Assembly (NCBI RefSeq): GCF_026224925.1
Contig: NZ_JAMFRV010000080.1
Span: 1-46,322, forward strand
From: Pseudomonas sp.
Lineage (GTDB): Bacteria; Pseudomonadota; Gammaproteobacteria; Pseudomonadales; Pseudomonadaceae
Length of the DNA stretch: 46,322 bases
Direction of reading: 5' to 3'
Both the position numbers and the translations under genes were made by a program. Within the stretch, counting starts at the first letter, position 1. Each line of letters starts with the position of its first letter. This document shows positions 6,895-28,300 of the stretch, in pieces. The notes beneath the pieces are model-generated. The model did not search any database. It saw only the letters and a program-made list of their open reading frames with translations, and was not told the DNA's origin.

Positions 6895-6896
6895 GC

Positions 6897-7751: not shown

Positions 7752-7812
7752 TGCGCGCGGCCCCGGGCTAATCCTGGGGCTGTTCAACCAACCTGTCGTG
7801 GATACCCTGTCG

Positions 7813-9869: not shown

Positions 9870-11456
9870 TTATTGGCAATTTTTGATCAAATCGGCGGCC
9901 TTCTCTCCAATCATGATGCACACCGAATTAGGGTTCCCTGAAATCAGGGTGGGCATGATCGATGCGTCGGCAACGCGCAGCCCTTCAATGCCATGCACCT
10001 TCAGATCCGGACCTACAACCGAGTGGTCGTCTACGCCCATACGGCAGGTACCGGAAGGATGGAGTGCCGCGTGAGCCTCTTCGTGACAGAATTTTTTCAT
10101 GGCCTCTCGCGACCTGACCGTAGCGTCCGGCACATGACGCCTGGCGAGATAGGGTTTGAAAGCGGCCTGGGACATGATTTCCTCGCCCACAAGGCAACCG
10201 TCCACCAGACTTTCAATATCGTAAGGGTCTGAAAAATAGTTGGGCACTATACGCGGAGGCGACATCGGGTCTGCCGAATACAGCTCAACATAGCCTCTGG
10301 ATTTTGGACGTATCTGGCCCAGGTTCAGCGTGCAGCCGTTGCCGCCGGGGACGGAGTCAATGCCCTCTTCGATACCTGCGCCAACGACCATGAAATACTG
10401 GATATCAGGATTGGTTGCCGCCTTGTCTCCCCACCAGAAAGCCCCGCCTTCAATCAAGTTGGACGCAGCAGGGCCTTGCCTGAACAGGGCGTATTGCAAG
10501 GCCGCCATCATTTTCCAGTGCGGTTTTTTGTACTTGTCGTAGCTGTGCGGGCCCGTCAGCTCATAAACGAGCGACACTTCAATATGGTCCTGAAGATTCT
10601 GCCCTACACCGGGCAGGTCCTGGATAACGTTGATGCCATGCTTATCGAGCTGCGCTGCCGGGCCAATGCCGGACAACATCAACAAGCGTGGGGAGTTGAT
10701 AGCGCCGGCGGATAAAACGATTTCCTTTTCGGCGTACATCACTTGACGCACACCGTTCTCGATATATTCAACGCCAATGGCTTTTTTCCCCTGCATCAAG
10801 ATACGGATCACCCGACAACCCGTCTTGACCGCCAGGTTCTTGCGTGACTTCGCGGGCGCCAGGTAGGCCACCGCCGCACTGCTGCGAAAACCATTTTTGG
10901 CCGTGATTTGATAAAGCCCGCAACCTTCAGGTTTGCCGGAGTTGAAATCCTCGTTGTACGGCAAACCGTACTGCTGGCAAGCGCGAAGCCACACCTTGGT
11001 CAGTGGATGGATATTGATAGGGTCAGAAACACCCAACGGTCCACCGACACCATGAACGTCGTTACAGAAGCGCTCGTTGTCTTCGGCTTTTTTGAAGTAA
11101 GGCAATACATCTTTATAGGACCAGCCCGTTGCCCCCTGCTCGACCCAACCATCGTAATCAGCGGGTACGCCGCGAATATAAATCATCGCATTGACCGAAC
11201 TCCCGCCACCCAGCACGCTAGCCTGGACCATGGTCGGCGTTGCAGTCCTGCGTTGATCTTCAGTGGGCTCCCACGCATACCGTTTGAGCAGCGGACCTTG
11301 CGCCGTTTTATAGTAGGCGCCGGGAATATGGATGTAGGGGTTGCGGTCACGAGGCCCCTCTTCAAAAAGGACCACGGACGCAGAAGTATCTTCGCTGAGT
11401 CTCGATGCCACCGTGCAGCCTGTCGAGCCGCCTCCGATTACGATGAAATCCACCAT
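9870..11456 (-). CDS. GMC FAD oxidoreductase (L-sorbose dehydrogenase-like), paralogue A
   Basis: GGGSTG, LGGGSSVNAM, GQNLQDH, HPSGTCRMG, GNPN. Confidence 0.92.
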   Translation of the reverse strand: MVDFIVIGGGSTGCTVASRLSEDTSASVVLFEEGPRDRNPYIHIPGAYYKTAQGPLLKRYAWEPTEDQRRTATPTMVQASVLGGGSSVNAMIYIRGVPADYDGWVEQGATGWSYKDVLPYFKKAEDNERFCNDVHGVGGPLGVSDPINIHPLTKVWLRACQQYGLPYNEDFNSGKPEGCGLYQITAKNGFRSSAAVAYLAPAKSRKNLAVKTGCRVIRILMQGKKAIGVEYIENGVRQVMYAEKEIVLSAGAINSPRLLMLSGIGPAAQLDKHGINVIQDLPGVGQNLQDHIEVSLVYELTGPHSYDKYKKPHWKMMAALQYALFRQGPAASNLIEGGAFWWGDKAATNPDIQYFMVVGAGIEEGIDSVPGGNGCTLNLGQIRPKSRGYVELYSADPMSPPRIVPNYFSDPYDIESLVDGCLVGEEIMSQAAFKPYLARRHVPDATVRSREAMKKFCHEEAHAALHPSGTCRMGVDDHSVVGPDLKVHGIEGLRVADASIMPTLISGNPNSVCIMIGEKAADLIKNCQ

Positions 11457-11525: not shown

Positions 11526-12410
11526 TTATCGCCCAACAAGTCGGGTTAAAAGTGCCTTCAGATCTTTCGCGACCTCATAACTGTTTTGCTGCTGCTGTTT
11601 TTTACAAAACAACTCACAGCTCCACCATCCGTCGTAACCGGTAGCCTTTACCGCGGCAGTCCACTCGGCAAGGTTCAATATCCCGTTCCCCGTCGGTATA
11701 TCTCGGAGTAATTCTTCATTGGGAATACCGCCTTCAAAAGGCAGCGAATCACACACATGCACGCCATAGATAACGTCTTTGTTCATGCGTGCGATTTCTT
11801 CTGGCCTAACGCCGGACGTAAAACAGTGCCAGTAATCGATGACCATCTTGACGTTGTCGCGTTCGGTGCGATCAATCAGCTGTAGTTGGTGCTCCAGCGT
11901 ATTCAATGGCGTCCATGACAAAGCTTCAAGATAGAGAAGAACACCATATTGCTTTGCCAAGTCAGCGAGCAGCGCAAGATTCTTGGCAGTCAACGCATAT
12001 TGTTCGGCATCATCCAAACCCAGCAAACCGGTGTAATGAGCGCTCGTGCCATGCTTCTGGTAATCGATCACCGCTTGAACGTTGATGGGCCCGGTGAGTA
12101 CTTGAACACCTTTGGCGCCGGCCAGGTTGGCCAATTGAAAAAGCCGTTCCGCTTCCTTCAGCAAATCATCGCGTTCGGCGCCTTGGCGTTCGATATCCCT
12201 CAGGTAACCGATCCCTGTGACGGGGATATCCTTCAGCAACGCTTTCAGTTCCGGCTCCGAATAACCGGCCTGCAAATAGGCTTCCAGTTTGCCGCTGTAG
12301 ATCTCCAACGCATCGAAACCGACAGTCTTCGCAATGTCGATGTCTATGGCCAGCGTCGAATGTTTTGCGACTGTGGAATGCAAGGCCAGGATGTTTTTTT
12401 GAGTGTGCAT
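11526..12410 (-). CDS. Sugar-phosphate isomerase/epimerase (xylose isomerase-like TIM barrel)
   Basis: Metal ligands in YLEAL, IDYWH, HVCD, PTGNG, WSCELF. Confidence 0.88.
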   Translation of the reverse strand: MHTQKNILALHSTVAKHSTLAIDIDIAKTVGFDALEIYSGKLEAYLQAGYSEPELKALLKDIPVTGIGYLRDIERQGAERDDLLKEAERLFQLANLAGAKGVQVLTGPINVQAVIDYQKHGTSAHYTGLLGLDDAEQYALTAKNLALLADLAKQYGVLLYLEALSWTPLNTLEHQLQLIDRTERDNVKMVIDYWHCFTSGVRPEEIARMNKDVIYGVHVCDSLPFEGGIPNEELLRDIPTGNGILNLAEWTAAVKATGYDGWWSCELFCKKQQQQNSYEVAKDLKALLTRLVGR

Positions 12411-12491: not shown

Positions 12492-12514
12492 CCTGACGCA
12501 CTCACTGCGTCAGG
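12492..12514. other. Intergenic hairpin
   Basis: CCTGACGCA-ctcac-TGCGTCAGG perfect 9-bp stem between the GH3 pair and the TIM-barrel gene. Confidence 0.5.
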
Positions 12515-12665: not shown

Positions 12666-13682
12666 TTAAGCTTCTGCGAGGCGATTGGCCAATGCCGATA
12701 CAGCTAAAGCAGCGGCGTCCAGCCGCTCCTGCGGTAAGGTCCCACGAGCGACAGCTGCGGTAATGGCGCAAACAATCTGCGCAATCTCAGGCATTGCCTT
12801 TGCGGAAATCAGCAATAGATCGGCCCCTGCATTCAGAGCTGCAACCGCCACCTCGCCGAGTGATGAGTTTCTCATCGTGGAGCGGTGGTCCAAGTCAATG
12901 GTCATCACCAATCCCTTGAACCCCAGTTCATCTCGCAGCAAACCAATAAGCTCAGGCGAAACGGATGCCGCAACGGGCGGCTCGCAGGCAGCAAAAATCG
13001 CCGGTCCCATCATCACCGCGTCCGCACCGGCGTCCACCCCGGCTTGAAACGCAGGCCAGTAGGCACGTAGCTGATCCAGTGACTCGGTGACCACCGCCTC
13101 TTCAACAGATGGTTGGCGCAGCAACACCGGATGTCCGGGGAAGTGCTTCAGGGTGCTCGCCATCCCGGCACGTCGTACACCGCGGACATAGGCACCGACC
13201 ATGGCCGCGGCCCGATTTACATCATCGGACAGTGTGCGCCCCTGCAACCATACATTGGTTCCACCGACCACATCAGCTGTCGGCGACAAGAGCAGATTCA
13301 CACCGGCGTCTCGCACTTTCGTCGCAACCTGAAAACAGGCATCTTCGAGCTCAGCAAGATCCATTACCCTGGCCAGATCAAGTTCAGGTAGCGCAGGCGC
13401 TACCCCTTGCAAGCGGTGAACGGCGGATATGTCAGCATCGGCCGCCAGTATCAGCGGCCCGGCAAAGTTTTTTGCAGTGCCGGTGAACCGTTGCCACTTT
13501 TCAAGCGTTTCAGATTCCAGGCGGCTCGCGCCCATTTTACCGCTGACATACTCCTGCGTGGTTTCGCCAAACAGCAGGCTGCGCCCTCCACAGCCCAGAA
13601 ATCTGCGCACGTCCTCATTCATGTCCAGATCGAGCAAAACTGGAAACAGGACGCTGAATGCCTTGCTTTCAATTGAGCTCAT
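12666..13682 (-). CDS. GH3 N-terminal-domain (NagZ-like) protein, degenerate copy 2
   Basis: KHFPGH, LLRDELGFKGLV, ALNAGADLLL. Has ADADIS for DQEGG and TIDL for SDDL. ATG 13682 lies just after the upstream stop. Confidence 0.85.
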   Translation of the reverse strand: MSSIESKAFSVLFPVLLDLDMNEDVRRFLGCGGRSLLFGETTQEYVSGKMGASRLESETLEKWQRFTGTAKNFAGPLILAADADISAVHRLQGVAPALPELDLARVMDLAELEDACFQVATKVRDAGVNLLLSPTADVVGGTNVWLQGRTLSDDVNRAAAMVGAYVRGVRRAGMASTLKHFPGHPVLLRQPSVEEAVVTESLDQLRAYWPAFQAGVDAGADAVMMGPAIFAACEPPVAASVSPELIGLLRDELGFKGLVMTIDLDHRSTMRNSSLGEVAVAALNAGADLLLISAKAMPEIAQIVCAITAAVARGTLPQERLDAAALAVSALANRLAEA

Positions 13683-13684
13683 GA

Positions 13685-14719
13685 TCAATCCCGGTTTGAG
13701 TTGTGCTGGTCATTATTGGCCGCTGCCAGTTCGCGAACCTTGAAGGCCGCGTCTAACAAAATCTGACGGCCCAGAACGCCTTCGTGAACAGCCGCCACAA
13801 TGGATTCGGCAATGGCATCAAGGCCCGACTCACTGGACACGAGCAACAGATGTGCGCCGGCCGCCAGCGAAGCAATAGCAGTGTCCGTGATGGAGTTGCC
13901 CCTGAGGATGGATACCGCATCAAGGTCATCCGAGATGATCAAGCCCTCGAATCCAAGGGTGTCACGCAGAACCCCGATGACTTTGGACGAAGTTGAGGCC
14001 GAATGATCAGAGTCGATTGCAGGAAAAACGGCTGGCCCTGGCATCACCGCTTTCACACCAGTAGCGATGACCTCCTTGAACACTTCGAGGTTGTCATGGA
14101 GCAACTCCAGCGGCCCGAGAACCGTGGCTTCAGCTATTGCCGGGTCCTGCTCGGTGACGTAGTGACCGGGAAAGTGTTTAGCAGTTGCAATGACGCCAGC
14201 GCGTTGAACCCCGCGGATATAGGCACAGGACAACCGACTGACTTCAACGGGGTCGGCGCCCAAATGCCGGTTGTGTAGCCATGGGTTGGCGCCGGTGACC
14301 ACATCGACGATCGGCGCCAGAAACAGATTAACGCCTAGACCGCGCGCCACGTTGGCCATCACAAAGCAGCGTTGCTCGATGTCCTGTGAACTGAGGTCCT
14401 TGAGCTGTTCTCTCGATGCGACTGCCGGGACCAATTGGTGAAGGCGTTGGATACCGCCGAGTTCCTGATCCACCGCGATCAGCACCGGCACACCGGCCAA
14501 TGACGCGGCTTCCCGGGCGATATTGACAAAGTCGGCCTGAGATTCGGCGTCCTTGCGCGCCGGACTCATGTCTCGGCCTACGTACTCATCCCGGGTTTCA
14601 CCCAGCAAAATAGACACGCCACCACGCCTCAAATAACGACGGACATTGTCGTCCAGACTCAAATCGCTGAATGCGGGAAGCAGTACCGAATACGCAGCTC
14701 TATGCAGTTCGCTTGACAT
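13685..14719 (-). CDS. GH3 N-terminal-domain (NagZ-like) protein, copy 1
   Basis: AVDQELGG, APIVDV, AKHFPGH, LRDTLGFEGLIISDDL. Confidence 0.88.
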   Translation of the reverse strand: MSSELHRAAYSVLLPAFSDLSLDDNVRRYLRRGGVSILLGETRDEYVGRDMSPARKDAESQADFVNIAREAASLAGVPVLIAVDQELGGIQRLHQLVPAVASREQLKDLSSQDIEQRCFVMANVARGLGVNLFLAPIVDVVTGANPWLHNRHLGADPVEVSRLSCAYIRGVQRAGVIATAKHFPGHYVTEQDPAIAEATVLGPLELLHDNLEVFKEVIATGVKAVMPGPAVFPAIDSDHSASTSSKVIGVLRDTLGFEGLIISDDLDAVSILRGNSITDTAIASLAAGAHLLLVSSESGLDAIAESIVAAVHEGVLGRQILLDAAFKVRELAAANNDQHNSNRD

Positions 14720-14859
14720 AGCTATTCCTCAACACCGTTATTTTGAGCAGAAAGCTCAACTTTATTGACGCATGACGGGGTGCCACGCATGATATCGATC
14801 AACTTCGAGCACAACACAAGCCATTAATGCTCGTTTATGCAACTTTACACAGGAAACAA

Positions 14860-15639
14860 ATGAAGTCAATGCTCACTCATGAAGCTTTCCCCGGAGAACG
14901 GCAAAACCTGATTGCGGAACGGCTAGCGACCCATGGCCGGGTTTTGGCTGGGGATCTCGCCCAGGAATTCAAAGTTTCGGAGCACTCGATCCGCCGAGAT
15001 CTCGCCGCGCTGGCGGATGCGGGAATCTGCAAGCGCGTGTACGGCGGCGCTATTTCAGTGGCCCCTGCGCGAGGCGATCATGACGCGCAAAATCAACAGG
15101 CTGACCGGAAGAACTCCCTTGGGCTGGCCGCTGCAGCATTGATCAAAGCCGGCCAACATATTTTCATGGATGGAGGTACCACCAATGCATCCATTTCGAG
15201 CGTAATCGATCACAATCTTGCAATTTCAATCACGACCAACTCGCCGGCAATTGCCCTTGAACTGGAAAAGCTGCCATTGGCCGATGTGATCTTGCTTGGG
15301 GGACGCCTGCACAAGGCGACCGGCAGCACCGTCGGCCTGACAGCAATTCAGCAGTTGTCGAATTTCAATTTCGACCTGTGCTTTTTGGGCGCCTGTGCGA
15401 TTGACGCCATCAAGGGCGTGACGGCTTTCGACATGGACGATGCGGAATTCAAGCGCACCGTTGTCTCTCGTAGCGGGCAGATTGTGGTCGCCGCGACCAA
15501 CGAAAAACTGTCGAGTATCGCGCATTACCAGGTCGCGTCATGCGAGGAGCTGGGTATATTGGTGGTAGAAAGAGACGCCCCTGCTGAACGGCTTGCGCCC
15601 ATCCAGGCCAAGGTTTCAAACATTGTGGTCGCCTCTTGA
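14860..15639 (+). CDS. DeoR/GlpR transcriptional regulator
   Basis: VSEHSIRRDL, RVYGGA, FMDGGTT, ITTNS, FDLCFLG. AGGA RBS before ATG 14860. Confidence 0.92.
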   Translation: MKSMLTHEAFPGERQNLIAERLATHGRVLAGDLAQEFKVSEHSIRRDLAALADAGICKRVYGGAISVAPARGDHDAQNQQADRKNSLGLAAAALIKAGQHIFMDGGTTNASISSVIDHNLAISITTNSPAIALELEKLPLADVILLGGRLHKATGSTVGLTAIQQLSNFNFDLCFLGACAIDAIKGVTAFDMDDAEFKRTVVSRSGQIVVAATNEKLSSIAHYQVASCEELGILVVERDAPAERLAPIQAKVSNIVVAS

Positions 15640-15649: not shown

Positions 15650-16819
15650 TTACTGTTCTGGAAAAGGCACCCAGGCACGCCGTTGACTCGACTCGACACA
15701 CGCCTGGGACAACACCACTCCACGCACGCCCTCGTGAATATCCGGTAAAGGGACGGTGGTCGCCGTGCGCCAGCCTGTTCCGGCATCGAGTGCTTCGGCG
15801 AAATCGGCATAAAGAACGGCAAGCGCCTCCAGATACCCTTCCGTATTACCCGCCGGCAAACTGGTGAAGGTCAACGTCTGAGCCGCATTGTCGCTCTGGC
15901 CACGGCGGTAGATGCGGTCGGCGCCGTCAAAGGGCGTAAACAGCAGCGTTTCCGGTGATTCTTGACACCATTCTATTGAAGCTTTGCTGCCGACGATCTT
16001 GAAACGCAATCCGTTGCGATGACCCGGCACCGCGAAACTGGCCCATAACAATCCATCTACGCCGCCCTCGAATTCAAGTTGCACCACACAAGTGTCGTCC
16101 AACTCCCAGCCGGGTACGACCGTGCTCAATTTGGCGTTCAGATTCGTGCAGCGCCGTCCGGACAGGAACTCAAGCATGTTGAAGGCGTGTGTCCCGACAT
16201 CGCCCAAAGCGCCGGTCGGGCCGGCCTTTTCAGGGTTGCCACGCCACGCGAGGCTCTTGCTCAATCCGTCGATGCCGGGCGCCAACCATTCCAGAAGGTA
16301 CTCGACATACATGAAGCGAACTTCACCCAGTTCCCCGGCCTGAATACGGCTACGAGCATCCCTGACCATGGGATAGCCTTGATAGGTGTACGTCACCGCG
16401 AAAAAAGTATTGTGCCGGTCGGCAATACTGGCCAACTCGTAGGCCTCTTGCGGACGATTGACCAACGGCTTGTCGCAAATAACCGGGATCCCCGCCCGCA
16501 GAAATAGCTGACACGGTTCAAAATGCAGGTGATTGGGCGTCACGATGACAACTGCATCAATCGGATCTGGCCGACGCGACTCGGCAGCTGCCATGTCCTC
16601 GAATGACAGGTAAATCCGGTCTGCCTCGAGGTTGAATGCCGCCCCGGCCTCACGGCATTTGTCCGCGTCCGAAGAGAAGGCGCCGGCAACAATATCGAAG
16701 CGATTGCACAGGCGCATGGCAGCACGATGATAACTGGCAAAATAAGCCCCTTGCCCACCTCCAACCATGCCTACCTTGAAGCGCCTTTGCCCTGGAATGT
16801 CGCCCGTTAACCTTGCCAT
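15650..16819 (-). CDS. Gfo/Idh/MocA NAD(P)-dependent oxidoreductase
   Basis: GMVGGGQG, VTPNHLH, CDKP, GALGDVGTHA, PAGNTEGYLEA. Confidence 0.92.
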   Translation of the reverse strand: MARLTGDIPGQRRFKVGMVGGGQGAYFASYHRAAMRLCNRFDIVAGAFSSDADKCREAGAAFNLEADRIYLSFEDMAAAESRRPDPIDAVVIVTPNHLHFEPCQLFLRAGIPVICDKPLVNRPQEAYELASIADRHNTFFAVTYTYQGYPMVRDARSRIQAGELGEVRFMYVEYLLEWLAPGIDGLSKSLAWRGNPEKAGPTGALGDVGTHAFNMLEFLSGRRCTNLNAKLSTVVPGWELDDTCVVQLEFEGGVDGLLWASFAVPGHRNGLRFKIVGSKASIEWCQESPETLLFTPFDGADRIYRRGQSDNAAQTLTFTSLPAGNTEGYLEALAVLYADFAEALDAGTGWRTATTVPLPDIHEGVRGVVLSQACVESSQRRAWVPFPEQ

Positions 16820-17357: not shown

Positions 17358-18251
17358 ATGCCCAGTCGAGGAGACCCGCCCCCAATGTCTTTAACTGCCG
17401 CCACCTCGCACCCCGAGCGACAACAGGTTCGCAGTGACTTGCAGGCAAACGTGCAAAAGAACCTCAGTACCCTTGTTGAGTCCTGCCGATCGGTTGCAGA
17501 CATGTGCCGCAAGGTCGATGTCAATCGCCAGCAGTTCAACAAGTACTTGGTTGGCCAGCACGTACCTTCACAGAAGATCCTTCAGAAAATCGGCCGTTAC
17601 TTCATGATGGAAGCTGAAGACCTTTTTCGGCCGCCCGCCGAGTTCAAGAAATTCTATGAAGGGTATGAAAACGAATTGCCGACGGACTTGCGTGCCTCGG
17701 CTCAATTCAATCATTTCCTGCCTTTGGCAAAGCAATCTGCCGATTTACTCGAAGACTACCTGGGCGTCTATTACCGATACCACAACTCATCGATCTACAA
17801 AGGCAGAATCCTGCGCTCGGTCACTTGCCTGTATCGAGCCGATTCAATGGTCCAGTACGTCACGGTAGAGCGCTTCCCCTTGCTGGATGGCAGCGGAAAG
17901 ATTGGCTACTCATTCACCTATCACGGTTTTTGCCTGCTCCTTGGGGACCGCCTGTTCCTGGTGGATTTTGAAGGCAAGCAACGTAACGAGATGACGTTTT
18001 CGATTCTGACCCCGCAACATCGCCGACCGATCCGGTTCCTCTATGGATTGGTCACCGGGGTGGCGTCTTCATCATTCCGCCAGCCCTTTTCCACCCGAAT
18101 GGCACTGGGGCTCGTGGACAAAGGCAAGATCCGTAAACATCACCTGCGCAATGCAACTGCGGTGCTTCCTAGCGATCAGTCATTGCCACTGGAGGTGCGT
18201 GAATACATGACCGGCGACAACGCCACTATCGTATGGGGCGGTCAGGACTGA
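17358..18251 (+). CDS. XRE-like HTH transcriptional regulator with uncharacterised C-terminal domain
   Basis: SVADMCRKVDVNRQQFNKYLVGQHVPS HTH. Start may be ATG 17385. Confidence 0.75.
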   Translation: MPSRGDPPPMSLTAATSHPERQQVRSDLQANVQKNLSTLVESCRSVADMCRKVDVNRQQFNKYLVGQHVPSQKILQKIGRYFMMEAEDLFRPPAEFKKFYEGYENELPTDLRASAQFNHFLPLAKQSADLLEDYLGVYYRYHNSSIYKGRILRSVTCLYRADSMVQYVTVERFPLLDGSGKIGYSFTYHGFCLLLGDRLFLVDFEGKQRNEMTFSILTPQHRRPIRFLYGLVTGVASSSFRQPFSTRMALGLVDKGKIRKHHLRNATAVLPSDQSLPLEVREYMTGDNATIVWGGQD

Positions 18252-18558: not shown

Positions 18559-20259
18559 CTAAGTTTCGTTGCGCCCACGCGAAACGCGCGCGGTAATCAC
18601 CTCTACTAAAGACGGCCCCTTGCTATTGAGCGCCTTGATAAAAGTGGGATTCAGTTGTGAGGAATGCTCGACCCGCCAGGCATCAAGACCGAAATTTTTG
18701 GCAATGCCGGCAAAATCAGGAGAATAAGGTTTGCCATCCGGCAGGTTGAACTCACCAGCCCGGTACTGCTCGACTAACGGGGTTTGCACATCACTCAATG
18801 AAACATAACCGCTGCTGTTAAACACCAGGAACACGACCGGAATGCTATGCATCACGCAGACCGCCATTTCCTGCATCGACTGCAAAAAATCCCCTTGCCC
18901 CACGGCACAAACCACCTGACGCGCTGGCATGGCGAGCTTCGCTCCGATCGCCGCCGGAATAGCCCAACCCATAGTCCCGACACTTCCTGCGCAGAGATGA
19001 GTTCTTGGACAATAGACAGGAAACATCTGGCTGACCGCCGTCTGAATACTTCCCCCACCGACCACCAGAATCGAATCCCTTTCCAGCACCGCCCGTAGTT
19101 CAGCCAATGGCTTGTGAATAATCAAGGGGGGAACGTCGCTGGCGCTATCTTCGATCAAGCGCGACTCGCGCTCTTTACGCAACACGGCTATTTCCCGGCA
19201 ATAAGTGGTGCGACGAAGTTGTAGCGCCTTGAACGGTGATGAGGAAATCGCACCAACCAAATCGGTCAATGCGCTTTTAATATCGGCGGTGATGCGAATA
19301 CCGGAATCGTGACCTCCCTGACGCTCATGCGGCGCACTGTCTATCGCGATGAATTGCGCATCACCCTGTTCCGCCAACCGAACGCCGTTGCGCGCCTGCG
19401 ACAGTGAGTGGCTTGGCTGACAGCCCAAAACCAGAACGACGTCAGCCGACGCCAGCAAATGATCGCCACCTGAACTTCCCGATTGGTGTATCACCCCAGC
19501 GCTCAACGGATGGTCTTCGGCAAAGGCACCCTTCCCTTGCATGGTCGTCACGACGGGCGCCAGTAGCCGCTCCGCCAACGCCAGCAATTGCGGGCTCGCA
19601 TCGGCGGCGATTATCCCGCCACTCACCAGGATGACCGGGCGAGCGGCACCACAGAGAGCCTTAGCTGCACGCTCGACTAACCAAGGGTCCGCCAACTGCA
19701 ATTCGCTGGTAGCCCGCAAGGTGGCGGGCGACAGGCTGAGTTCGATGGAGGCGCTCTGAACGGCGACCGGAATATCGACATTCACAGGTCCGCCGCAACC
19801 ACTCAGCATCGTATCGAAAGCCTGACGCAGAGCCTGGGGTAACTGCTCAATCGTCGGGACCAGCAAACGCCCTTTGGTAATTCTCGAATCCAACGCGTCA
19901 GGGAGATGGCCGTCGCTGGCGCCCTCCAGCCTGGGCAAATCATCTTCGGCACCGCCAGTGCTGATGACCAGAATCGCGGATGAATCCGCCCATGCGGCCG
20001 CGATCCCGCCCAAGGCTTTCGAAATACCCAAAGGGACAGGAAGCAGGACGGCCATGGGGCGACCGCAGGCGCGGAAATATCCGTCAGCGATATGCACGGA
20101 GCTTTGCTCCTGCATGACTTGAATGAACGGGATTTCAGTACCGGCAGATAACAGTGCCTCCACCAACGCCCATGATCCGTCTCCCGGCGTGCCAGCAACA
20201 TAGTCGACACCGTTCGCCCTTAGCGCTTTTGCAACAATCTGACCACCAGTGAGCTTCAC
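18559..20259 (-). CDS. ThDP-binding (acetolactate synthase/IolD-like) protein with degenerate cofactor motif
   Basis: QEQ..ADGY, GPV, GTMGWAIPAAIGAKLA. Has GQG...NS instead of GDG...NN. GGAG RBS before GTG 20259. Confidence 0.85.
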   Translation of the reverse strand: MKLTGGQIVAKALRANGVDYVAGTPGDGSWALVEALLSAGTEIPFIQVMQEQSSVHIADGYFRACGRPMAVLLPVPLGISKALGGIAAAWADSSAILVISTGGAEDDLPRLEGASDGHLPDALDSRITKGRLLVPTIEQLPQALRQAFDTMLSGCGGPVNVDIPVAVQSASIELSLSPATLRATSELQLADPWLVERAAKALCGAARPVILVSGGIIAADASPQLLALAERLLAPVVTTMQGKGAFAEDHPLSAGVIHQSGSSGGDHLLASADVVLVLGCQPSHSLSQARNGVRLAEQGDAQFIAIDSAPHERQGGHDSGIRITADIKSALTDLVGAISSSPFKALQLRRTTYCREIAVLRKERESRLIEDSASDVPPLIIHKPLAELRAVLERDSILVVGGGSIQTAVSQMFPVYCPRTHLCAGSVGTMGWAIPAAIGAKLAMPARQVVCAVGQGDFLQSMQEMAVCVMHSIPVVFLVFNSSGYVSLSDVQTPLVEQYRAGEFNLPDGKPYSPDFAGIAKNFGLDAWRVEHSSQLNPTFIKALNSKGPSLVEVITARVSRGRNET

Positions 20260-20736
20260 AGGACACTCCAATAGAACACGCCAATCAAACAGACGCAGGC
20301 GTGGGGCCGGATGCTCCTCCCCCGTCTCTGGACCGTCACTGGAGTATTCGCCCGGAGCAAGCACGGCTCAATTTCGCACACTCCGTAAAAGAGACGCACG
20401 TTGACGCAGGTAATTCATCCCATCGCCCGCCAGAGGAGAACTATTGTTATCGGGAGTGTGCTGCGCCGATTAGGTCACTTTGATGCGTCAGAGTGCGTCG
20501 CTTTTAAAGGCGCTGCGAAATTGAGTGCTCTGCCCGCCAAGGCCAATACTCGGCCCATGAAAACAACAAGCCGAGCCTATCAAGCGCTGGGTACGCCACT
20601 TGATAGAAACAATGCTGGCCATAACTCTGCCGATTGACATGACTTATATAAAAATGTGCCCGGCAACATTAGCTGATCCGGAGCCATTGCAAATCGCTGA
20701 TCGTTTGCACACAACCACCCTAGGCAGGAACTCGAA

Positions 20737-21900
20737 ATGAAAAAAGAAACAGCGACGGGTTATGGATCAACCGGCATTGACTTGGACTCGATTAGCTTGA
20801 AACGGCGCACTTTTCTGTTGGGGGCGGCCGCGTCTGCCGCAGGGTTGTACATCGGTTCGTTCGTACCCAGTGCGTTTGCCGCAGCAGCAGGCGGCCACCT
20901 GGAGATTCTTGGCTGGGAGGGTGAAACCGGTGACGCGGAACTAGCTGACTGGCGCAAACAGCGTGGTATTACCGTACGTTCAAGCTATGCCAGTACCCAA
21001 GACGACATTACCGCACGGTTGGCCGGCTCGGATCCCGTGCAGCTTGATTTGACCATGTATGCCTTGGGCTACGAGACCATCTATAAAGAAATGGGTCTGC
21101 TCAAGGAGATCGATACCTCGAAGATTCCTAATTACTCGGCAGACAATACCCTGGCTCTTTTCTACAAAGGCAGCCGCTGGTACTGGGATGGCAAGCAGTG
21201 GGGGATCCCACTTCTGTGGGGAATGAACACCATCATCTACAACCCTAAGAGCGTCAAGAAACCTGCCGAATACAAAGACCTTTTGGACCCGAAACTGAAG
21301 GGCAAACTGACCTTTGTCGATGATGGTCTGTCGACCTGGTCACTCATTGCCATTATTGCTGGCTATGGCAACAAGTTCCCTAACCTGACACGTGCCGAGT
21401 TCGACGACGCGTTCGAGAAGCTCAAGCCGTACCGTGATCAATGCCGAGTCTTTGCAGCCTCCTCGGGAGACGCGGTTTCCCTACTGGTGTCGGGCGAAGT
21501 GGACGCGGTTTTTTCCGCGTCTGCCAACACGCCAAGCGAAACAGCCAAGCGCGGCGTAACAACAGCTCTGTCCGTTCCAAAAGAAGGCGCGGCCGTCTGG
21601 TGCGATGCCTTGTTTATCCCGAAAACGGCAAAGGACATACCGCTTGCGCTGGAGTTCATCAACAAGACGCTTGAGGCTGAAACCCAGGCCAAGATGGCAA
21701 CTACCATGTTCTCCGGGGTCGTCAATCCCAAAGCCGTACCGCTGCTCCCTGCCGAGTTGAGAAACACTTTCGACTACGCGAATCTGGACAGCTTTTTCGA
21801 GAAATCGAAACTCTACAGCCAGCCCCCTCTGAGCTCCGACAAGTACGTGACCTATGCTGAATGGATCGATCAGTGGGCGAACTTCAAAGGCTCGTTCTAG
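20737..21900 (+). CDS. PotD/PotF-like ABC substrate-binding protein with Tat signal
   Basis: LKRRTFLL twin-arginine motif and AFA cleavage site, WGIPLLWG, DLLDPKLKGK, PKEGAAVWCD. Confidence 0.88.
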   Translation: MKKETATGYGSTGIDLDSISLKRRTFLLGAAASAAGLYIGSFVPSAFAAAAGGHLEILGWEGETGDAELADWRKQRGITVRSSYASTQDDITARLAGSDPVQLDLTMYALGYETIYKEMGLLKEIDTSKIPNYSADNTLALFYKGSRWYWDGKQWGIPLLWGMNTIIYNPKSVKKPAEYKDLLDPKLKGKLTFVDDGLSTWSLIAIIAGYGNKFPNLTRAEFDDAFEKLKPYRDQCRVFAASSGDAVSLLVSGEVDAVFSASANTPSETAKRGVTTALSVPKEGAAVWCDALFIPKTAKDIPLALEFINKTLEAETQAKMATTMFSGVVNPKAVPLLPAELRNTFDYANLDSFFEKSKLYSQPPLSSDKYVTYAEWIDQWANFKGSF

Positions 21901-21956
21901 ATCGGCTGGTAGTCGGTTTTTTACAGAAAGGCTTGTTTAAGGGAACTGTACTGGAG

Positions 21957-21980
21957 AGCGCGTGCCTGCGAGCACGCGCT
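21957..21980 (+). other. Hairpin between SBP and permease genes (possible mRNA stabiliser)
   Basis: AGCGCGTGC-ctgcga-GCACGCGCT. Confidence 0.45.
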
Positions 21981-22103
21981 GCTCTGCTCGATGGAGGCGA
22001 TGGAATGGCCTGTCGATGCCATTCGTATGGTTCTGGAAGAGCACACGTCACACGCTCGCCAAAGCACCCTCGTTATCGAACAAAAAGCAAAGGCAAACTA
22101 ATC

Positions 22104-23039
22104 ATGAACGTAGTCAACAACAGCGAGCCCATCATTCTCGACGAAAGGGATTCGAAGGCCGGTAAACAAGTAAGGATCGACAAAAAGACCTTGAGTGGGT
22201 ACTTGCTGGCTTCGCCCCCCCTGTTCTTTCTGGTGGTGTTCTTTCTGATTCCGTCGGTGCTGCTGCTGGTCGCAAGTTTCTGGACCGCCAAGACATTCAG
22301 CATGGAACCTGCCGCTACCGTTGCCAACTATGCGAGGGCCCTGAGTGCCAGCGGGTTCTATGATTCCTTGTGGATCGCTCTGCAAAACGGCTTTTGGACC
22401 GCCGTATTGTCGACGGTCATCAGCGCCCCGGTCGCCTACTATATTGTCTATCGGACGCGCTCCAACGCGGTGCTGTACCTGGCCTTGATCTCGTGGTTCT
22501 CCAGCTATCTGGTGCGGGTCTATGCCTGGCGCTCCATCCTGGGCACCAACGGCGTGATCAACTCCACGCTGTTGCACCTCGGACTGATTGATCAACCACT
22601 GGACTGGCTGGTGTTCAGCAAGTTTTCGGTGGTGTTAACCCTGGTGCACATCATGCTGCCCTTCACCCTGCTGCTGTTGGTGTCTGGCTTACGCGATATC
22701 AAGAAGGATTATCTGGAGGCCGCCGCGGACCTGGGTGCCAGCGGTTTCACCATCTTGTGGCGTGTGATCATGCCAATGGCGCACAAAAGCATTGTCAGCT
22801 CGTTCATGTTCACCTTCGTCCTCGCAGCCAGTGATTACGTCACCCCCCAGATGCTCGGGGGTAGAGATGCCATGACTACTGGCCTGGTGATCGCCAACCA
22901 GTTTCGGTCGGTTGGTAACTGGCCGCTGGGTGCGGCAATGGCCTACCTGCTGCTGCTTGTATTCATGCTGGTCTATGCGCTGCTGCTGGGCGTATTGCGG
23001 GCTGCGAACCTGGCACCCGGCAAACGTTACCACGACTGA
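22104..23039 (+). CDS. ABC permease, PotB-like
   Basis: SYLVRVYAW, GVINSTL, EAAADLGA, DYVTPQMLGG, NWPLGAA. Confidence 0.92.
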   Translation: MNVVNNSEPIILDERDSKAGKQVRIDKKTLSGYLLASPPLFFLVVFFLIPSVLLLVASFWTAKTFSMEPAATVANYARALSASGFYDSLWIALQNGFWTAVLSTVISAPVAYYIVYRTRSNAVLYLALISWFSSYLVRVYAWRSILGTNGVINSTLLHLGLIDQPLDWLVFSKFSVVLTLVHIMLPFTLLLLVSGLRDIKKDYLEAAADLGASGFTILWRVIMPMAHKSIVSSFMFTFVLAASDYVTPQMLGGRDAMTTGLVIANQFRSVGNWPLGAAMAYLLLLVFMLVYALLLGVLRAANLAPGKRYHD

Positions 23040-23067
23040 ATACCGCCCATAAAAAAGGTAACTCGCC

Positions 23068-23859
23068 ATGATCAGGCTATTCACTTACGTTTACATGCTC
23101 TTCCTTTATGCGCCCATCGCGATCATCACGCTGTTCAGCTTTCATTCGTCAGCCTCGTTGTCGTTCCCCTTCGAAGGTTTCTCTACCAAATGGTACGAGG
23201 CACTGTTCAGCAGTTCGGACTTCATGACGGCATTGGCCAACAGTGCCATCGTCGCCGCGGGTTCGGCCACTCTCACCACGGTGCTGGGCACGTTCTCGGC
23301 ACTGGCGCTGATGCGCATGAAAGGTCGAGTCAAAGCCGTCTTTGCATTCATGAACTTCGCCCCTATCGCCTTGCCCGGATTATTCCTGGGGATCGCGCTG
23401 GTGATTTTCTTTTCGGTGATAGGCCTACCCCGCTCGCTGCTGACCGTGGTCATCGGCCATACGCTGTTCACCTTTCCGTTTTTCGTCGAGTCCGTGCGTT
23501 CACGACTGGAGTACTTTGACCTTTCGTTCGAAGAGGCGGCTCGTGATCTTGGCGCCTCACCGCTCAAGGCCTTCTGGCTGGTGACGCTGCCAATCATTGG
23601 CCCGACGATTGCCGGTGCCGCGATCCTGGCGGTAGCGCTTTCCATGGACGAATTCCTGATCACGGTATTCGTCACCGGCAGCAACACCACGCTGCCACTG
23701 ATGATTCTTTCAATGATGCGCCGCGCTGTCAGCCCAACCATCAATGCCGCCTCGGTATTCATGCTGGTCGTGACCATCGCCATCATCGTCATTGCCGGCC
23801 TGGTCATGACCTTGCGCCGTCGTCGTCTCGAACTTGAACGTGCTGAAACTGCAGAGTAA
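23068..23859 (+). CDS. ABC permease, PotC-like
   Basis: FLYAPI, GFSTKWY, EEAARDLGASP, SMDEF, TLPL, PTINAA. Confidence 0.92.
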   Translation: MIRLFTYVYMLFLYAPIAIITLFSFHSSASLSFPFEGFSTKWYEALFSSSDFMTALANSAIVAAGSATLTTVLGTFSALALMRMKGRVKAVFAFMNFAPIALPGLFLGIALVIFFSVIGLPRSLLTVVIGHTLFTFPFFVESVRSRLEYFDLSFEEAARDLGASPLKAFWLVTLPIIGPTIAGAAILAVALSMDEFLITVFVTGSNTTLPLMILSMMRRAVSPTINAASVFMLVVTIAIIVIAGLVMTLRRRRLELERAETAE

Positions 23860-23864
23860 TCACC

Positions 23865-24944
23865 ATGACCAACAGTATTGAACTGACCGGAATATCCAAG
23901 AGTTACGGCAACCTGACCGCCCTTGGCAAAGTCGACCTGATCGTCAAGCGCAACGAAATCCTGACCTTGCTCGGCCCAAGCGGCTGCGGCAAAACCACAT
24001 TGATGCGCATCATTGCCGGCTTCGAAGAGCCCACCACCGGCAAGGTTGTGATTGACGGCAAGGACTCCACGTCCCTCGCGCCTGAACACCGCCCGGTCAA
24101 CATGGTGTTTCAAAAATATGCCCTGTTCCCTCACCTTGATGTGTTCGACAACGTGGCTTTCGGGCTGCGCCTGAAGAAGAAACCGAAGGATGAGATTAAA
24201 CGTGAAGTGACCAAGGCACTGGAGCTGGTCCAGCTGGAAAGCTTCAAGAATCGCTGGATCTCCGAGCTCAGCGGTGGGCAGGCACAGCGCGTCGCGTTGG
24301 CGCGGGCCCTGGTGAACCGCCCCGCCGTGCTACTGCTCGACGAACCGCTGGCAGCGCTGGACCTAAAGATTCGCCACCACATGCTCAATGAAATAAAAAG
24401 GATCCACGAAGAAACTTCGACCACGTTCGTTTACGTCACCCATGACCAGGACGAAGCGATGATCCTGTCTGACCGGGTCGTCCTGTTAAACAAGGGTGGC
24501 ATTGAACAAATCGGTGGGCCAGAAGAGATGTATTGGTCGCCACGTACGTTGTTCGCCGCGAAATTTTTCGGCGATACCAACATCGTCAACGGCACTTATG
24601 GGCTGGGCGACACCAGCAACGGCTATGTCGAACTTCCGTTCGGACGCTATGCACACACGGCCAAGAACAGCCTGAGTACCGGGCCGGTCAATGTTTCTAT
24701 CCGTCCCGAAACCATCGTCCTAGAGCCCGCACAAGGCGCGACACTAGCCAACGGGGCATTTGTCGGCAAAGTGAAAGACACTTCGTTCATTGGCAATCGG
24801 GTCATTTACAGGGTGACGGTTGCCGGCGGAACCATCGACCTGAAATGTCAACAACTGCCTACTCCAGGCAGCCACACACTGCCACCCGGATCGGATGTTG
24901 CACTCACCTGCAAACCAGACAGTTTCGTGGTCATACCGGCCTGA
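23865..24944 (+). CDS. ABC ATPase, PotA-like
   Basis: GPSGCGKTT, LSGGQ, LLLDEP, VTHDQ, TOBE-type C-terminus. Confidence 0.95.
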   Translation: MTNSIELTGISKSYGNLTALGKVDLIVKRNEILTLLGPSGCGKTTLMRIIAGFEEPTTGKVVIDGKDSTSLAPEHRPVNMVFQKYALFPHLDVFDNVAFGLRLKKKPKDEIKREVTKALELVQLESFKNRWISELSGGQAQRVALARALVNRPAVLLLDEPLAALDLKIRHHMLNEIKRIHEETSTTFVYVTHDQDEAMILSDRVVLLNKGGIEQIGGPEEMYWSPRTLFAAKFFGDTNIVNGTYGLGDTSNGYVELPFGRYAHTAKNSLSTGPVNVSIRPETIVLEPAQGATLANGAFVGKVKDTSFIGNRVIYRVTVAGGTIDLKCQQLPTPGSHTLPPGSDVALTCKPDSFVVIPA

Positions 24945-25074: not shown

Positions 25075-26661
25075 GTGGTCCAATACATTGTGATCGGGGG
25101 TGGGTCAGCCGGGTGCGTCATTGCGGCACGTCTTAGCGAAAACACGGAGGCTTCGGTGGTCCTCCTTGAAGAAGGGCCAAAAGACACAAACCTGCTTATC
25201 CATCTCCCGGTCGGTTTCTATAAGACCAGCCAGGGCAATCTGGTAGAACGTTACCCTTGGGAGCCACCAGCAGACTACATCGGCCCTGCCGACCCGACCA
25301 TGGTGCAGGCGCGAGTACTCGGCGGTGGGAGTTCGGTTAACGCCATGGTCTATCTGCGCGGGCAACCCGCCGATTACGACAGCTGGGCGGCTTGCGGTGC
25401 CCAAGGCTGGGCCTACAAGGACGTATTGCCCTTCTTCAAGAAGTGCGAAAGCAATGATCGATTCAGCAACGATGCCCACGGTACCGACGGCCCGCTCGGA
25501 GTATGCGATCAACGTTATACCCACCCCTTGACCAAACTCTGGTTACAAGCCTGCCAACAAGCAGGATTAGCCTACAACGCCGACTTCAATTCGGGGGTTC
25601 AGGACGGTTGCGGGCTTTATCAAATCAACGCCAGGAACGGTCTGAGATCGAGCACCTCGGTCGCGTACCTGAAGCCCGCCCGGCGGCGACCTAATCTGAC
25701 GGTTAAAACCAATTGCCGGGTCTTGCGAATCCTGATTGAGGATGGACGCGCAACGGGTGTTGAATACCTTGAAAAAAACCAGTGCCACGTACTCAGGGCC
25801 GAACGCGAAGTCATTGTCAGTGCCGGGGCGATCAATACCCCGAAACTGTTGATGCTGTCGGGCATTGGCCCAGCCAGTCACCTACACGCCAAAGGCGTCA
25901 AAGTGATGCATGACCTGCCTGGGGTCGGACAGAACCTGCAAGATCACATCGAAGTATCCTTGATCAATGAACTGCGTCGCCCATTGAGTTACGACAAGTA
26001 CAAAAAACCGCACTGGAAAATCGCTGCCGGTTTGCAGTACGCACTGTTTCGAGAAGGCCCCGTGACCTCCAACGTGGTAGAAGGTGGTGCGTTCTGGCGT
26101 ACGTCCCTGGCCGAAAACCGCGCGGACGCTCAGTACTGTTTCATGGCCGGTGCCGGTGTAGAGGCTGGCGTGGGGTCCGTCCCTGGTGGCAACGGCTGCA
26201 CCTTGAACGTGTGCCAGACCCGACCTCGCTCGACAGGTTCTGTGCGACTGAGGAGCGCTGACCCGATGGAGTTTCCTTCCATTAAACCCAACTACCTGAC
26301 CGATCCGTTCGACGTAGAGTGCATGGTTCAAGCGACCGAGTTCGGTCGACACATTATGTCCCAGAGCGCGATGGCCGGGCATATTCTGCGCGAGCACATA
26401 CCCGCCGAGCCATTGCGCACCCGTGACGATTATCTAAAGTTTGTGCGTCAACAGGCGCACGCTGCGCTGCACCCGGTAGGCACCTGTAAGATGGGCACGG
26501 ACGAGATGGCGGTGGTGGACAATGAGTTACGCGTACATGGAATCGGTGGCCTGCGTATCGCCGACAACTCCATCGCACCGAGTTTGTGTTCCAGCAATAC
26601 CAACGCGCTGGCGATTATGATTGGCGAGAAAGCGGCTGATCACATTCAACGCGCTCACTAG
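25075..26661 (+). CDS. GMC FAD oxidoreductase (L-sorbose dehydrogenase-like), paralogue B
   Basis: GGGSAG, LGGGSSVNAM, GQNLQDH, HPVGTCKMG, SNTN. Collinear with 9870-11456. Confidence 0.92.
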   Translation: MVQYIVIGGGSAGCVIAARLSENTEASVVLLEEGPKDTNLLIHLPVGFYKTSQGNLVERYPWEPPADYIGPADPTMVQARVLGGGSSVNAMVYLRGQPADYDSWAACGAQGWAYKDVLPFFKKCESNDRFSNDAHGTDGPLGVCDQRYTHPLTKLWLQACQQAGLAYNADFNSGVQDGCGLYQINARNGLRSSTSVAYLKPARRRPNLTVKTNCRVLRILIEDGRATGVEYLEKNQCHVLRAEREVIVSAGAINTPKLLMLSGIGPASHLHAKGVKVMHDLPGVGQNLQDHIEVSLINELRRPLSYDKYKKPHWKIAAGLQYALFREGPVTSNVVEGGAFWRTSLAENRADAQYCFMAGAGVEAGVGSVPGGNGCTLNVCQTRPRSTGSVRLRSADPMEFPSIKPNYLTDPFDVECMVQATEFGRHIMSQSAMAGHILREHIPAEPLRTRDDYLKFVRQQAHAALHPVGTCKMGTDEMAVVDNELRVHGIGGLRIADNSIAPSLCSSNTNALAIMIGEKAADHIQRAH

Positions 26662-26774: not shown

Positions 26775-28058
26775 TCAGACTGACTTCTTGTAACGACGAA
26801 TCCGGATATCCGCCTGTTCCTTGTGCCCGGCGAAACCTTCCATGCCGCATAAACGGGAACAGTATTCACCGACCAGTACAGACGCCTCATCAGTCAGGAC
26901 ACGTTGATAGGTGCAAGTCTTGATGAACTTGCCGACCCATAGGCCGCCGGTGTAACGCGCCGTGCCCGTGGTGGGTAACGTATGGTTGGTACCAATTACT
27001 TTGTCGCCATAGGAGACGTTGGTCCGCTCACCGAGGAACAGCGCACCGTAGTTGGTCATGTGCTCAAGGAAATAGAGTGGATCCCGAGTCATTACTTGCA
27101 CGTGCTCGGAGGCAATCCGGTCGGCTTCCTGCACCAGTTCGTCCACGGTGTCGCAAAGGATTATCTCGCCGTAATCTCGCCAGGCAACTGAAGCGACTGG
27201 GGCGGTAGAGAGAATGGCCAACTGACGCTCGATTTCCGCTGGCAGGGTGTCTGCCAATTCGGGGCTATTGGTCAAAAACACCGCAGGGGAGTTAACGCCG
27301 TGCTCAGCCTGCCCCAGTAAGTCGGCGGCAATGATTTCAACATCAGAGCTGTCATCGGCAATCACCAGTGTTTCAGTCGGGCCGGCAATCAAGTCGATGC
27401 CGATTTTGCCGAACAGTTGGCGTTTGGCTTCCGCGACAAACGCGTTACCTGGGCCGACAATCATATCGACCGGCTTGAATTCACGGGTACCCAACGCAAG
27501 GGCAGCAATCGCTTGCACCCCGCCGACACAATAGATTTCATCGGCACCGGCCAAATACATGGCCGTCACGATGGCAGGATGGGGCTTGCCATCAAACGGC
27601 GGAGCCGCTGCAACGACACGTTTCACACCCGCCACTTTGGCAGTTAGCACGCTCATATGTGCCGATGCCAGCAGCGGATATTTCCCGCCGGGGATGTAGC
27701 AGCCCACCGAGTTCACTGGAATGTTGCGATGCCCCAGAATCACGCCTGGGAGTGTTTCGACTTCGACATCGTGCATGGATGCTTTTTGCACTTCAGCAAA
27801 ACGGCGTACTTGCGCCTGAGCAAATTTGATGTCACCTATTTCCTGCTCCGAAAGACTGGCGACGCACGCAGCGATTTCGTCATCGGTCAGACGGAAGGTC
27901 ACTGGCTCCCACTTATCAAACCTCTTCGAATACTCCCGAACGGCGGCATCACCGTTCTTGGTTACATTGGCGATGATCTGTTCAACCGTATCGCGGACTT
28001 GAGATGCAATCTCAGCTTGAGCTTCGACGGGCTTACTTTTTTTCAGGTAACGAATCAT
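26775..28058 (-). CDS. Histidinol dehydrogenase-family protein, HpsN-like non-biosynthetic paralogue
   Basis: [52 protein letters not shown] before ATG 28058. No his operon nearby. Confidence 0.88.
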
Positions 28059-28219: not shown

Positions 28220-28234
28220 GTTATTCGTATAACC
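28220..28234. promoter_or_regulatory. Operator copy (1 mismatch) GTTATTCGTATAACC
   Basis: Direct match to the palindrome repeated at 28285, 34903 and 35014. Confidence 0.7.
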
Positions 28235-28248
28235 TCATTACAAAGTCA

Positions 28249-28276
28249 TTGACTTAGAGAATCGTAGTGATAGCTT
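28249..28276 (+). promoter_or_regulatory. Putative sigma70 promoter for the thuA-ThDP-GMC operon
   Basis: TTGACT-16 nt-TAGCTT with TGn extended -10. Operator lies immediately downstream. Confidence 0.5.
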
Positions 28277-28284
28277 AAATAAAC

Positions 28285-28300
28285 GGTTATACGTATAACC
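28285..28300. promoter_or_regulatory. Perfect 16-bp palindrome GGTTATACGTATAACC, candidate LacI operator
   Basis: Central CG palindrome in a divergent promoter region, recurring in the island. Confidence 0.8.

Follow-up and report, generated by a model that had tools for sequence, protein, structure and literature searches.

Glycoside hydrolases of family 3 (GH3) that are of the NagZ type (PF00933; NF003740; solved structures 6k5j, 3sql, 5g1m and 4gvf) are beta-N-acetylglucosaminidases built as a single (beta/alpha)8 barrel with a KHFPG motif, a nucleophilic Asp and an Asp-His dyad for acid/base catalysis, while the two-domain GH3 beta-glucosidases (barley ExoI type) carry a Glu acid/base in a C-terminal domain. 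For RmNag, the accessible part of the published report names Asp80, Arg149, Lys179 and Met229 as pocket residues, and hydrolysis is abolished by H192A or by D268A (PMC4680927). With regard to the iminosugar 1-deoxynojirimycin (DNJ), Pseudomonas fulva ZJU1 grows on this compound with a roughly 90- to 1,000-fold induction of MFS, GMC, IlvB, ThuA, permease and HisD/HpsN genes, and growth on DNJ is lost upon deletion of ilvB (PMC11494336, in the portion available). The present analysis concerns a 46,322-nucleotide stretch of a Pseudomonas sp. genome (assembly GCF_026224925.1, contig NZ_JAMFRV010000080.1, positions 1 to 46,322; hereafter "the window"), in which two adjacent NagZ-like proteins devoid of the catalytic His, GH3a and GH3b, lie among genes matching the ZJU1 cluster and may have been turned from hydrolysis to iminosugar binding. 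The two genes are as follows:

13685..14719, minus strand: GH3a, single-domain NagZ-like barrel of 344 residues; codons at the two catalytic positions: Asp264 (nucleophile, kept) at 13930-13928 and Ala194 (in place of the acid/base His) at 14140-14138, minus strand
12666..13682, minus strand: GH3b, paralogous barrel of 338 residues; Ile262 codon at 12899-12897; no Asp-His dyad

A preliminary description of this DNA, made from the letters alone, had noted two adjacent GH3 barrels with the second ATG right after the first stop; this arrangement is borne out on the minus strand, where two bases separate the TGA of GH3a from the GH3b start at 13682. The proteins share 39% identity, and PF00933 is the sole Pfam domain in each (149 bits for GH3a and 139 for GH3b, against a gathering score of 27). 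As that description had also held, a GH3 C-terminal domain is lacking, none being found by Pfam among the 38 open reading frames (ORFs) of the window that were scanned; neither protein thus has the domain that supplies the Glu acid/base of two-domain enzymes. Although GH3a has the barrel and the nucleophile in common with the ExoI type, no C-terminal sandwich domain is encoded in either gene or elsewhere among the window ORFs scanned (longer fused forms were not sought in the protein database), and similarity to that type (E ~1e-5) contrasts with 1e-34 for the NagZ type. The AlphaFold models are complete barrels (predicted local distance difference test, pLDDT, 88 for GH3a and 96 for GH3b), both of which match the NagZ-type structure 6k5j in Foldseek at template modelling (TM) scores of 0.85-0.88, and the closest solved relatives of both proteins are NagZ-type enzymes by sequence as well as by fold. 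By fold, as PF00933 barrels, GH3a and GH3b belong to GH3. Under the curated NagZ model NF003740 (cut-off 207 bits), they score 129 and 93 bits, respectively, and fall below the cut-off; the ESM Atlas names for GH3b are automatic GH3 labels only. A separate intact NagZ is encoded in the same genome (on contig C733), where another, unrelated GH3 is weakly matched as well, and the pair is therefore additional. Since signal-like N-terminal segments are absent and both models open with the first helix of the barrel, the two proteins are probably cytoplasmic.

The catalytic residues set the pair apart from NagZ. GH3a (motifs KHFPGHYVTEQDPA, AVDQELGG and ISDDLDA) retains the nucleophile Asp264 and has Ala194 in place of the acid/base His, whereas GH3b (motifs KHFPGHPVLLRQPS, ADADISAV and MTIDLDH) has neither nucleophile nor acid/base, the nucleophile position being occupied by Ile262. 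These are the changes read in the preliminary description (no His but SDDL in the first copy, TIDL in the second), and alignment to NagZ-type structures does not restore the catalytic residues: Ala194 pairs with the mutated residue of P. aeruginosa NagZ H174A (5g5u), likewise an Ala, and Ile262 with the Asp of TDCL/TDAL. Two features had been overlooked: GH3a keeps Asp192 of the Asp-His dyad, and additional fixed changes are common to both copies. Among a-type homologues, Asp264 is present in 121/121, Ala194 in 119/121 and Asp192 in 119/121; in the b type (n = 120), position 262 is Ile (60), Cys (58) or Asn (2) and never Asp, and 119 of the 120 carry an Asp-x-Asp-His motif with a near-invariant new His266. 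The changes in catalytic residues are fixed across about 120 homologues of each type. In a residue alignment of 81 canonical, 49 a-type and 28 b-type rows (one b row being sorted among the a rows), the dyad His occurs in 81/81 canonical, 0/49 a and 0/28 b rows. In a metagenome scan used as a control only, 79/80 loci carried ordinary GH3 proteins; the motif KH[FY]PGHG-x4-D[ST]H was found in 79 of 80 ordinary GH3 frames chosen by the KHFPG pattern, and hence not a random GH3 sample, with the 80th still keeping the His.

An invariant Asp264 and a nearly invariant Asp192 would be expected if GH3a were a glycosidase, transglycosidase or phosphorylase relying on its nucleophile, with substrate or phosphate as the acid/base and GH3b as a dead partner, but this is unlikely. 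Iminosugar glycosides or other activated glycosides would be the substrates, and plants contain DNJ glycosides. Phosphorylase activity has been reported for a His-type GH3, which counts in its favour, while the His-to-Ala exchange that abolishes RmNag hydrolysis counts against it (both from the accessible part of PMC4680927). Further, MPGP has replaced the MxAH motif, and no Met follows the nucleophile any longer. The nucleophile site is also variable at the edges of the subfamily, as seen from a divergent a-like copy with ADDLD in genome G1046 and another without the DLD acids in G1452. At the G1046 locus (L169), two a-like copies, one of them bearing the ADDLD motif, lie 8 kb apart in opposite orientation with no b-type gene.

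In contrast to these losses, the sugar pocket is largely kept. Both types share with NagZ the Asp84, Arg151, Lys181, His182, Phe-Pro-Gly and Met226 positions (Asp, Arg and Lys 96-100% kept in both; Met in 100% of a and 82% of b rows), a set corresponding to the pocket residues named for RmNag in the available part of PMC4680927. Lost from both types are the dyad His (now Ala or Ser/Gly), the Gly following KHFPGH, the His of MxAH (now GP, giving MPGP/MMGP) and the Met four residues past the nucleophile; the nucleophile and the dyad Asp are lost in the b type only. Gained by both are an 18-residue insertion after strand 2 (GE-x3-EY) with invariant Glu41, Glu45, Tyr46, Arg55 and Glu59, together with Trp147, Pro193, Asp265 and Asp267, so that DLD follows the nucleophile position. 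In NagZ, strand 2 and the loop that follows the nucleophile form the N-acetyl pocket. If the same elements are concerned here, a greasy pocket would have turned acidic, which would suit a cationic ligand.

The neighbouring genes point to the possible nature of such a ligand. The window encodes an IlvB orthologue that, like ZJU1 IlvB, is 1,788 bp long and carries all five of the published docking residues (E253, F258, Q361, W364 and Q411) under identical numbering; the protein ends encoded by the published primers read MPKLTAS and RNKEQHL in ZJU1 against MSKLTGS and RKSEQHL in the window (PMC11494336, in the portion available). As in the ZJU1 annotation available, the core of the window combines the IlvB orthologue with ThuA, HisD/HpsN-like, GMC, MFS, LacI and helix-turn-helix regulator genes, and the order ThuA-IlvB-GMC is common to both; only IlvB was compared at residue level, the other counterparts being assigned by annotation or family and by order. 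The core is very probably a DNJ-type catabolic cluster. A putative route of ring oxidation, dehydration and thiamine-dependent ring cleavage, followed by HisD-type oxidation of the hydroxymethyl group and release of an aspartate unit, would be consistent with the aspartate semialdehyde and fumarate of the accessible ZJU1 report (PMC11494336). Beyond the ZJU1 genes listed there, the window holds the GH3 pair, a DeoR regulator, a Gfo oxidoreductase, a TIM-barrel protein, two more GMCs, an ABC transporter and a second thiamine enzyme. Because the part of the ZJU1 gene table available lists one hexosaminidase, an uninduced nagZ, and no entry for "glycoside hydrolase family 3", ZJU1 does not need the pair to grow on DNJ, its absence being judged from annotation (PMC11494336).

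Linkage between the GH3 subfamily and the IlvB orthologue extends well beyond the window. Among 72,556 plasmid records each occurs in 22 and both in 21, at a distance of 4.3-19.0 kb; the GH3-only exception is a record with many broken genes that carries the pair and GMCs, and the IlvB-only exception is a Priestia cluster without GH3. The records are not independent, since many are close kin (nine of Shinella). The wider core, as seen in plasmid records of rhizobia, Shinella, Paracoccus, Thalassospira and Arthrobacter, includes a HisD-like dehydrogenase, the thiamine enzyme, GMCs and a regulator, often with aspartate ammonia-lyase, HAD and DeoR genes, a set of genes that suggests iminosugar breakdown. 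Several alphaproteobacterial clusters contain a HAD phosphatase-DeoR-GH3a(-MFS) unit, which looks like a sugar-analogue tolerance module. A link to the calystegine catabolism of S. meliloti Rm41 was considered; its plasmid is not among the plasmid matches. In 401 Pseudomonas genomes, IlvB is present in 22 and the subfamily in 32, with 19 having both, three IlvB only and 13 GH3 only; GH3a and IlvB lie 218 kb apart in G696 and on separate contigs in G684 and G743. Within the family of G084, the subfamily was found in five of 350 scored genomes, always beside the GMC genes of the cluster, and four of the five have IlvB and HisD within the stretches examined; the phylum and class samples yielded one genome in 400 each, and the class match, G1452, is a counter-example to the linkage. 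Overall, the subfamily ranges over Alpha-, Beta- and Gammaproteobacteria and Arthrobacter, with Burkholderia-type pairs among the protein-search matches. It is absent from G705, G754, G790 and the Priestia cluster, although G705 and G754 do have the TIM-barrel and GMC1 genes. The pair is accessory and not a pathway step.

The reverse situation, GH3a without the pathway, is seen in 12 of the 401 Pseudomonas genomes, which have no IlvB orthologue (best match 32-33%). GH3a thus goes with the cluster in the majority of lineages and stands by itself in one. These orphan copies form one clade, mostly at one conserved site, with a median ratio of nonsynonymous to synonymous substitution rates (dN/dS) of 0.13 (11 of the 12 used). 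Four of the orphan genomes (G486, G505, G543 and G723) possess a HisD/HpsN-like paralogue elsewhere (65-66%). In the thirteenth GH3-only genome, G777, the two thiamine enzymes are 45-47% like IlvB and belong to a variant cluster, which may serve a different iminosugar. This cluster (L141, L157) also carries HisD-like, GMC, Gfo, TIM-barrel, DeoR and GH3a genes, and it has downstream genes in common with the orphan site. For the close Pseudomonas loci, median dN/dS is 0.076 for GH3a (13 copies, 78 pairs) and 0.116 for GH3b (12 copies, 66 pairs); both are therefore maintained proteins. Frequent loss of b and a split a-copy in G861 could recall functionless relics in decay, a notion we consider hardly credible; it is already contradicted by these selection figures, and full barrels (pLDDT 88 and 96) and a spread over three proteobacterial classes and Arthrobacter likewise speak against it.

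Taking these observations together, we favour, tentatively and at somewhat less than even chance, the reading that GH3a and GH3b are cytoplasmic pseudo-glycosidases which bind a DNJ-type iminosugar and thereby buffer the inhibitor. It is the simplest reading because the sugar-ring pocket is kept, catalysis is lost, acids are gained and such a protein would be useful without the pathway; it is also favoured by the linkage to genes whose orthologues make up an experimentally tested DNJ pathway. Asp84, Arg151, Lys181, His182 and Met226 would grip the gluco-like ring, while Asp264 and the new acids Glu41, Glu45, Asp265 and Asp267 would pair with the protonated nitrogen. The neighbouring cluster would import and degrade the inhibitor as GH3a and GH3b buffer its free form, such binding would shield the cell's own glycosidases, and GH3b, with its altered pocket, would be suited to an intermediate or to another iminosugar. 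Less probable is the broader, joint claim that a glycosidase of peptidoglycan recycling has been turned into a decoy soaking up iminosugar inhibitors, that in Pseudomonas, on alphaproteobacterial plasmids and in Arthrobacter it travels with the DNJ-type cluster, and that some Pseudomonas, having lost the catabolic genes, retain it alone for resistance. The preliminary description had proposed either a heterodimer, which might act on products of the co-oriented GMC, or binders of a glycosidase-inhibitor-type ligand; as a whole this interpretation is partly supported, the second option having gained context from the cluster orthologous to that of ZJU1.

Several points weigh against iminosugar binding. 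The new invariant Glu41, Glu45, Tyr46, Arg55, Glu59, Trp147, Asp265 and Asp267 could just as well belong to a new catalytic site, stoichiometric buffering requires high expression, and orthology to the ZJU1 cluster is no proof that the substrate of the larger window cluster is DNJ. DNJ inhibits alpha-glucosidases better than beta-glucosidases, and the ligand may therefore be a DNJ relative. Stand-alone GH3a copies could mean a function unrelated to iminosugars: all 12 orphans lie among unrelated genes, and the DeoR orthologue of three orphan genomes is located elsewhere, with unrelated neighbours in both loci scanned. A degenerate a-like copy in G1452 adjoins a sugar ABC transporter and an epimerase, and IlvB and HisD are absent from its 34.6-kb contig. 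A distant HAD-DeoR partner for orphan GH3a was tried as an explanation and rejected, no HAD or cluster gene lying by DeoR in the two loci (ORFs of at least 150 residues).

The remaining genes of the cluster are listed below:

9870..11456, minus strand: GMC1 oxidoreductase, choline-dehydrogenase-like but under the family cut-off
11526..12410, minus strand: xylose-isomerase-like TIM barrel (AP_endonuc_2); closest solved structure IolI, E 1.5e-11
14827..15639, plus strand: DeoR-family regulator, divergent from GH3a
15650..16819, minus strand: Gfo/Idh/MocA oxidoreductase, directly upstream of GH3a in relatives without DeoR
17358..18251, plus strand: regulator-like protein with no Pfam or NCBIfam match, homologues being annotated as helix-turn-helix regulators
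18559..20364, minus strand: TPP1, diverged thiamine-enzyme paralogue (41%), GQGD replacing GDGD
20737..24944, plus strand: PotABCD-type ABC transporter (binding protein, two permeases, ATPase)
25075..26661, plus strand: GMC2, paralogue of GMC1 (62%)
26775..28058, minus strand: HisD/HpsN-like dehydrogenase, closest solved relative sulfopropanediol 3-dehydrogenase; counterpart of ZJU1 gene 3036
28336..29061, plus strand: ThuA-domain protein, counterpart of ZJU1 gene 3032
29058..30845, plus strand: thiamine-diphosphate enzyme of 595 residues, orthologue of ZJU1 IlvB (gene 3031)
30863..32491, plus strand: GMC3, like flavin adenine dinucleotide (FAD)-dependent glucose/fructose dehydrogenases; positional counterpart of ZJU1 gene 3030
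32545..33645, minus strand: LacI regulator, counterpart of ZJU1 gene 3033
33706-34875, minus strand, and 35093-36376, plus strand: two divergent MFS transporters

A conserved gene order runs through 13 close Pseudomonas loci: ABC transporter, thiamine enzyme, regulator, (Gfo), GH3a, (GH3b), TIM barrel, GMC. GH3b is present in 12 of them and Gfo in 11. Oxidation-elimination pathways acting through 3-keto-glycosides employ a Gfo/Idh/MocA or GMC dehydrogenase and a xylose-isomerase-like lyase, and all of these families flank the GH3 pair. Similarity to characterised members is weak (levoglucosan dehydrogenase, 97 bits against a cut-off of 650, in addition to the IolI match given above), and to our knowledge such pathways do not include disarmed GH3 proteins. 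On another view, the barrels are repurposed enzymes. Their new acidic cluster would carry out a non-hydrolytic reaction of an intermediate or of an iminosugar variant, such as hydration of a cyclic imine, dehydration or isomerisation, and the barrels would join Gfo, the TIM-barrel protein and GMC1 in widening the range of substrates. We regard this as possible, if doubtful; it ranks close behind the binder because so many of the new polar residues are invariant, at least eight being common to a and b despite 39% identity. The location of the genes between Gfo and TIM-barrel/GMC1 in 11/13 loci and the near-invariant Asp-x-Asp-His of GH3b are in its favour, but 12 genomes keep GH3a without the pathway, TIM-barrel and GMC1 genes occur where GH3 does not, and the pair has an operator-like site of its own.

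This site, the palindrome TTGAGC-N5-GCTCAA (14743..14759, about 40 bp before the GH3a ATG), is a likely operator of the GH3 pair and recurs at -38 to -40 with 0-2 mismatches in 11/13 close relatives; it was not found before orphan or most alphaproteobacterial GH3a copies. A likely separate operator of the TIM-barrel and GMC1 genes, CTGACGCA-N5-TGCGTCAG (12493..12513), precedes the TIM-barrel gene and is found at the same place with 0-1 mismatch in 11/13 relatives. The third palindrome, GTTATACGTATAAC, lies twice between HisD and ThuA (28220..28299) and probably serves the core genes; two more copies are located at 34903 and 35015, and in the 6.88-Mb genome all four matches (up to one mismatch) fall in the window beside core genes. 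As the three palindromes divide the cluster, the GH3 pair is likely to be under its own control. Apart from these sites, the DeoR gene adjoins GH3 in the window, in 3/13 close loci and in most clusters outside Pseudomonas (alphaproteobacterial and Arthrobacter), as would suit a co-regulator in which the barrel senses the iminosugar and signals via DeoR. Such a role is nonetheless improbable, given that an adjacent DeoR gene is missing from 10/13 close loci and that two of five GH3a genomes tested with the window query have no DeoR orthologue (34% only in G696, none in G751).

The preliminary description's heterodimer, in which the barrels would complement each other's missing residues as an obligate arrangement, finds some encouragement in the two-base-spaced tandem of 12/13 close loci and in the b type, which is never seen without a (0/32 Pseudomonas genomes) and of which 11 database proteins lie on contigs equal in size to those of a-type ones. 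The expected constant co-conservation of the pair fails, as GH3a stands alone in 18 of the 32 Pseudomonas genomes and 21 of the 22 plasmid records, but b may depend on a in one direction. Of the 32 genomes, those with two adjacent copies number 14 (assigned by motif in G000 and G622 and by coordinates in the others), and the 18 single copies are all a-type. In addition, a-copies with and without b interleave in the tree, a and b can be convergent or divergent outside Pseudomonas (L099, L105, L165), and neither barrel has a dyad His to lend, which makes obligate pairing very improbable. Prediction of the GH3a-GH3b complex scored 0.00 in two runs, counting neither for nor against association.

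In the phylogenetic tree, a and b types form a single clade separate from canonical GH3 (Shimodaira-Hasegawa-like approximate likelihood ratio test, SH-aLRT, 100), within which the b type is monophyletic (100) and spans Alpha-, Beta- and Gammaproteobacteria; the tree is a quick one of 81 out of 158 rows, built after removal of near-duplicates and of three in four canonical rows, and carries a long-branch warning at the root. Since b is one clade across three classes, the a/b duplication appears to be old, and a recent tandem duplication is rejected on the same ground. GH3a would seem to be the basic unit and GH3b an ancient, dispensable duplicate whose pocket has changed further.

Some additional observations were made on neighbouring and related sequences. 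In relatives (L001, L002, L004-L013, L143, L146, L147), TPP1 is a frame of about 370-435 residues without most of the middle domain, some with GDGD, while the window copy is full length; TPP1 is a second candidate pseudoenzyme of the cluster. The regulator-like protein at 17358-18251 shows 97-99% identity among relatives against 80-95% for its neighbours, and in alphaproteobacteria the cluster is marked by homologues of about 40%. A protein of about 230 residues without a family match adjoins the regulator at L101:7042-7737, L141:6191-6892 and L155:35036-35731, recurring where no ThuA homologue was seen, and is possibly a stand-in for ThuA. Positions 4847-8583 of the window hold a GntR/UTRA regulator, a SIS-domain protein, a PfkB kinase and an amino-acid binding protein, a set which we take to resemble a fructose-amino-acid (Amadori) utilisation unit. 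An unannotated 9.7-kb phage record (H67, MT836558.1) contains a 39% partial match to GH3a at 3464-4249. The Priestia megaterium plasmid CP109764 (L128, 59498-72591) bears a Firmicute core cluster without GH3, comprising IlvB (62%), ThuA, MFS, aspartate ammonia-lyase, HisD-like and GMC3 genes; in the available part of PMC11494336, these enzymes are reported from Pseudomonadota only.

DNJ and other iminosugars are glycosidase poisons of plants and microbes that also serve as scaffolds for drugs, and their tolerance and degradation by bacteria are barely worked out, a single primary paper having been found in the literature searched, whose cluster, in the part available, is without GH3 (PMC11494336). 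The DNJ-type cluster is now extended to rhizobia, Paracoccus, Thalassospira, Arthrobacter and Priestia. The literature searched, mostly without subscription journals, yielded no description of this GH3 subfamily or of a decoy role, and databases call its members beta-N-acetylhexosaminidases despite the missing catalytic His. Whether binder or new enzyme, either function would, within that literature, be new for GH3.

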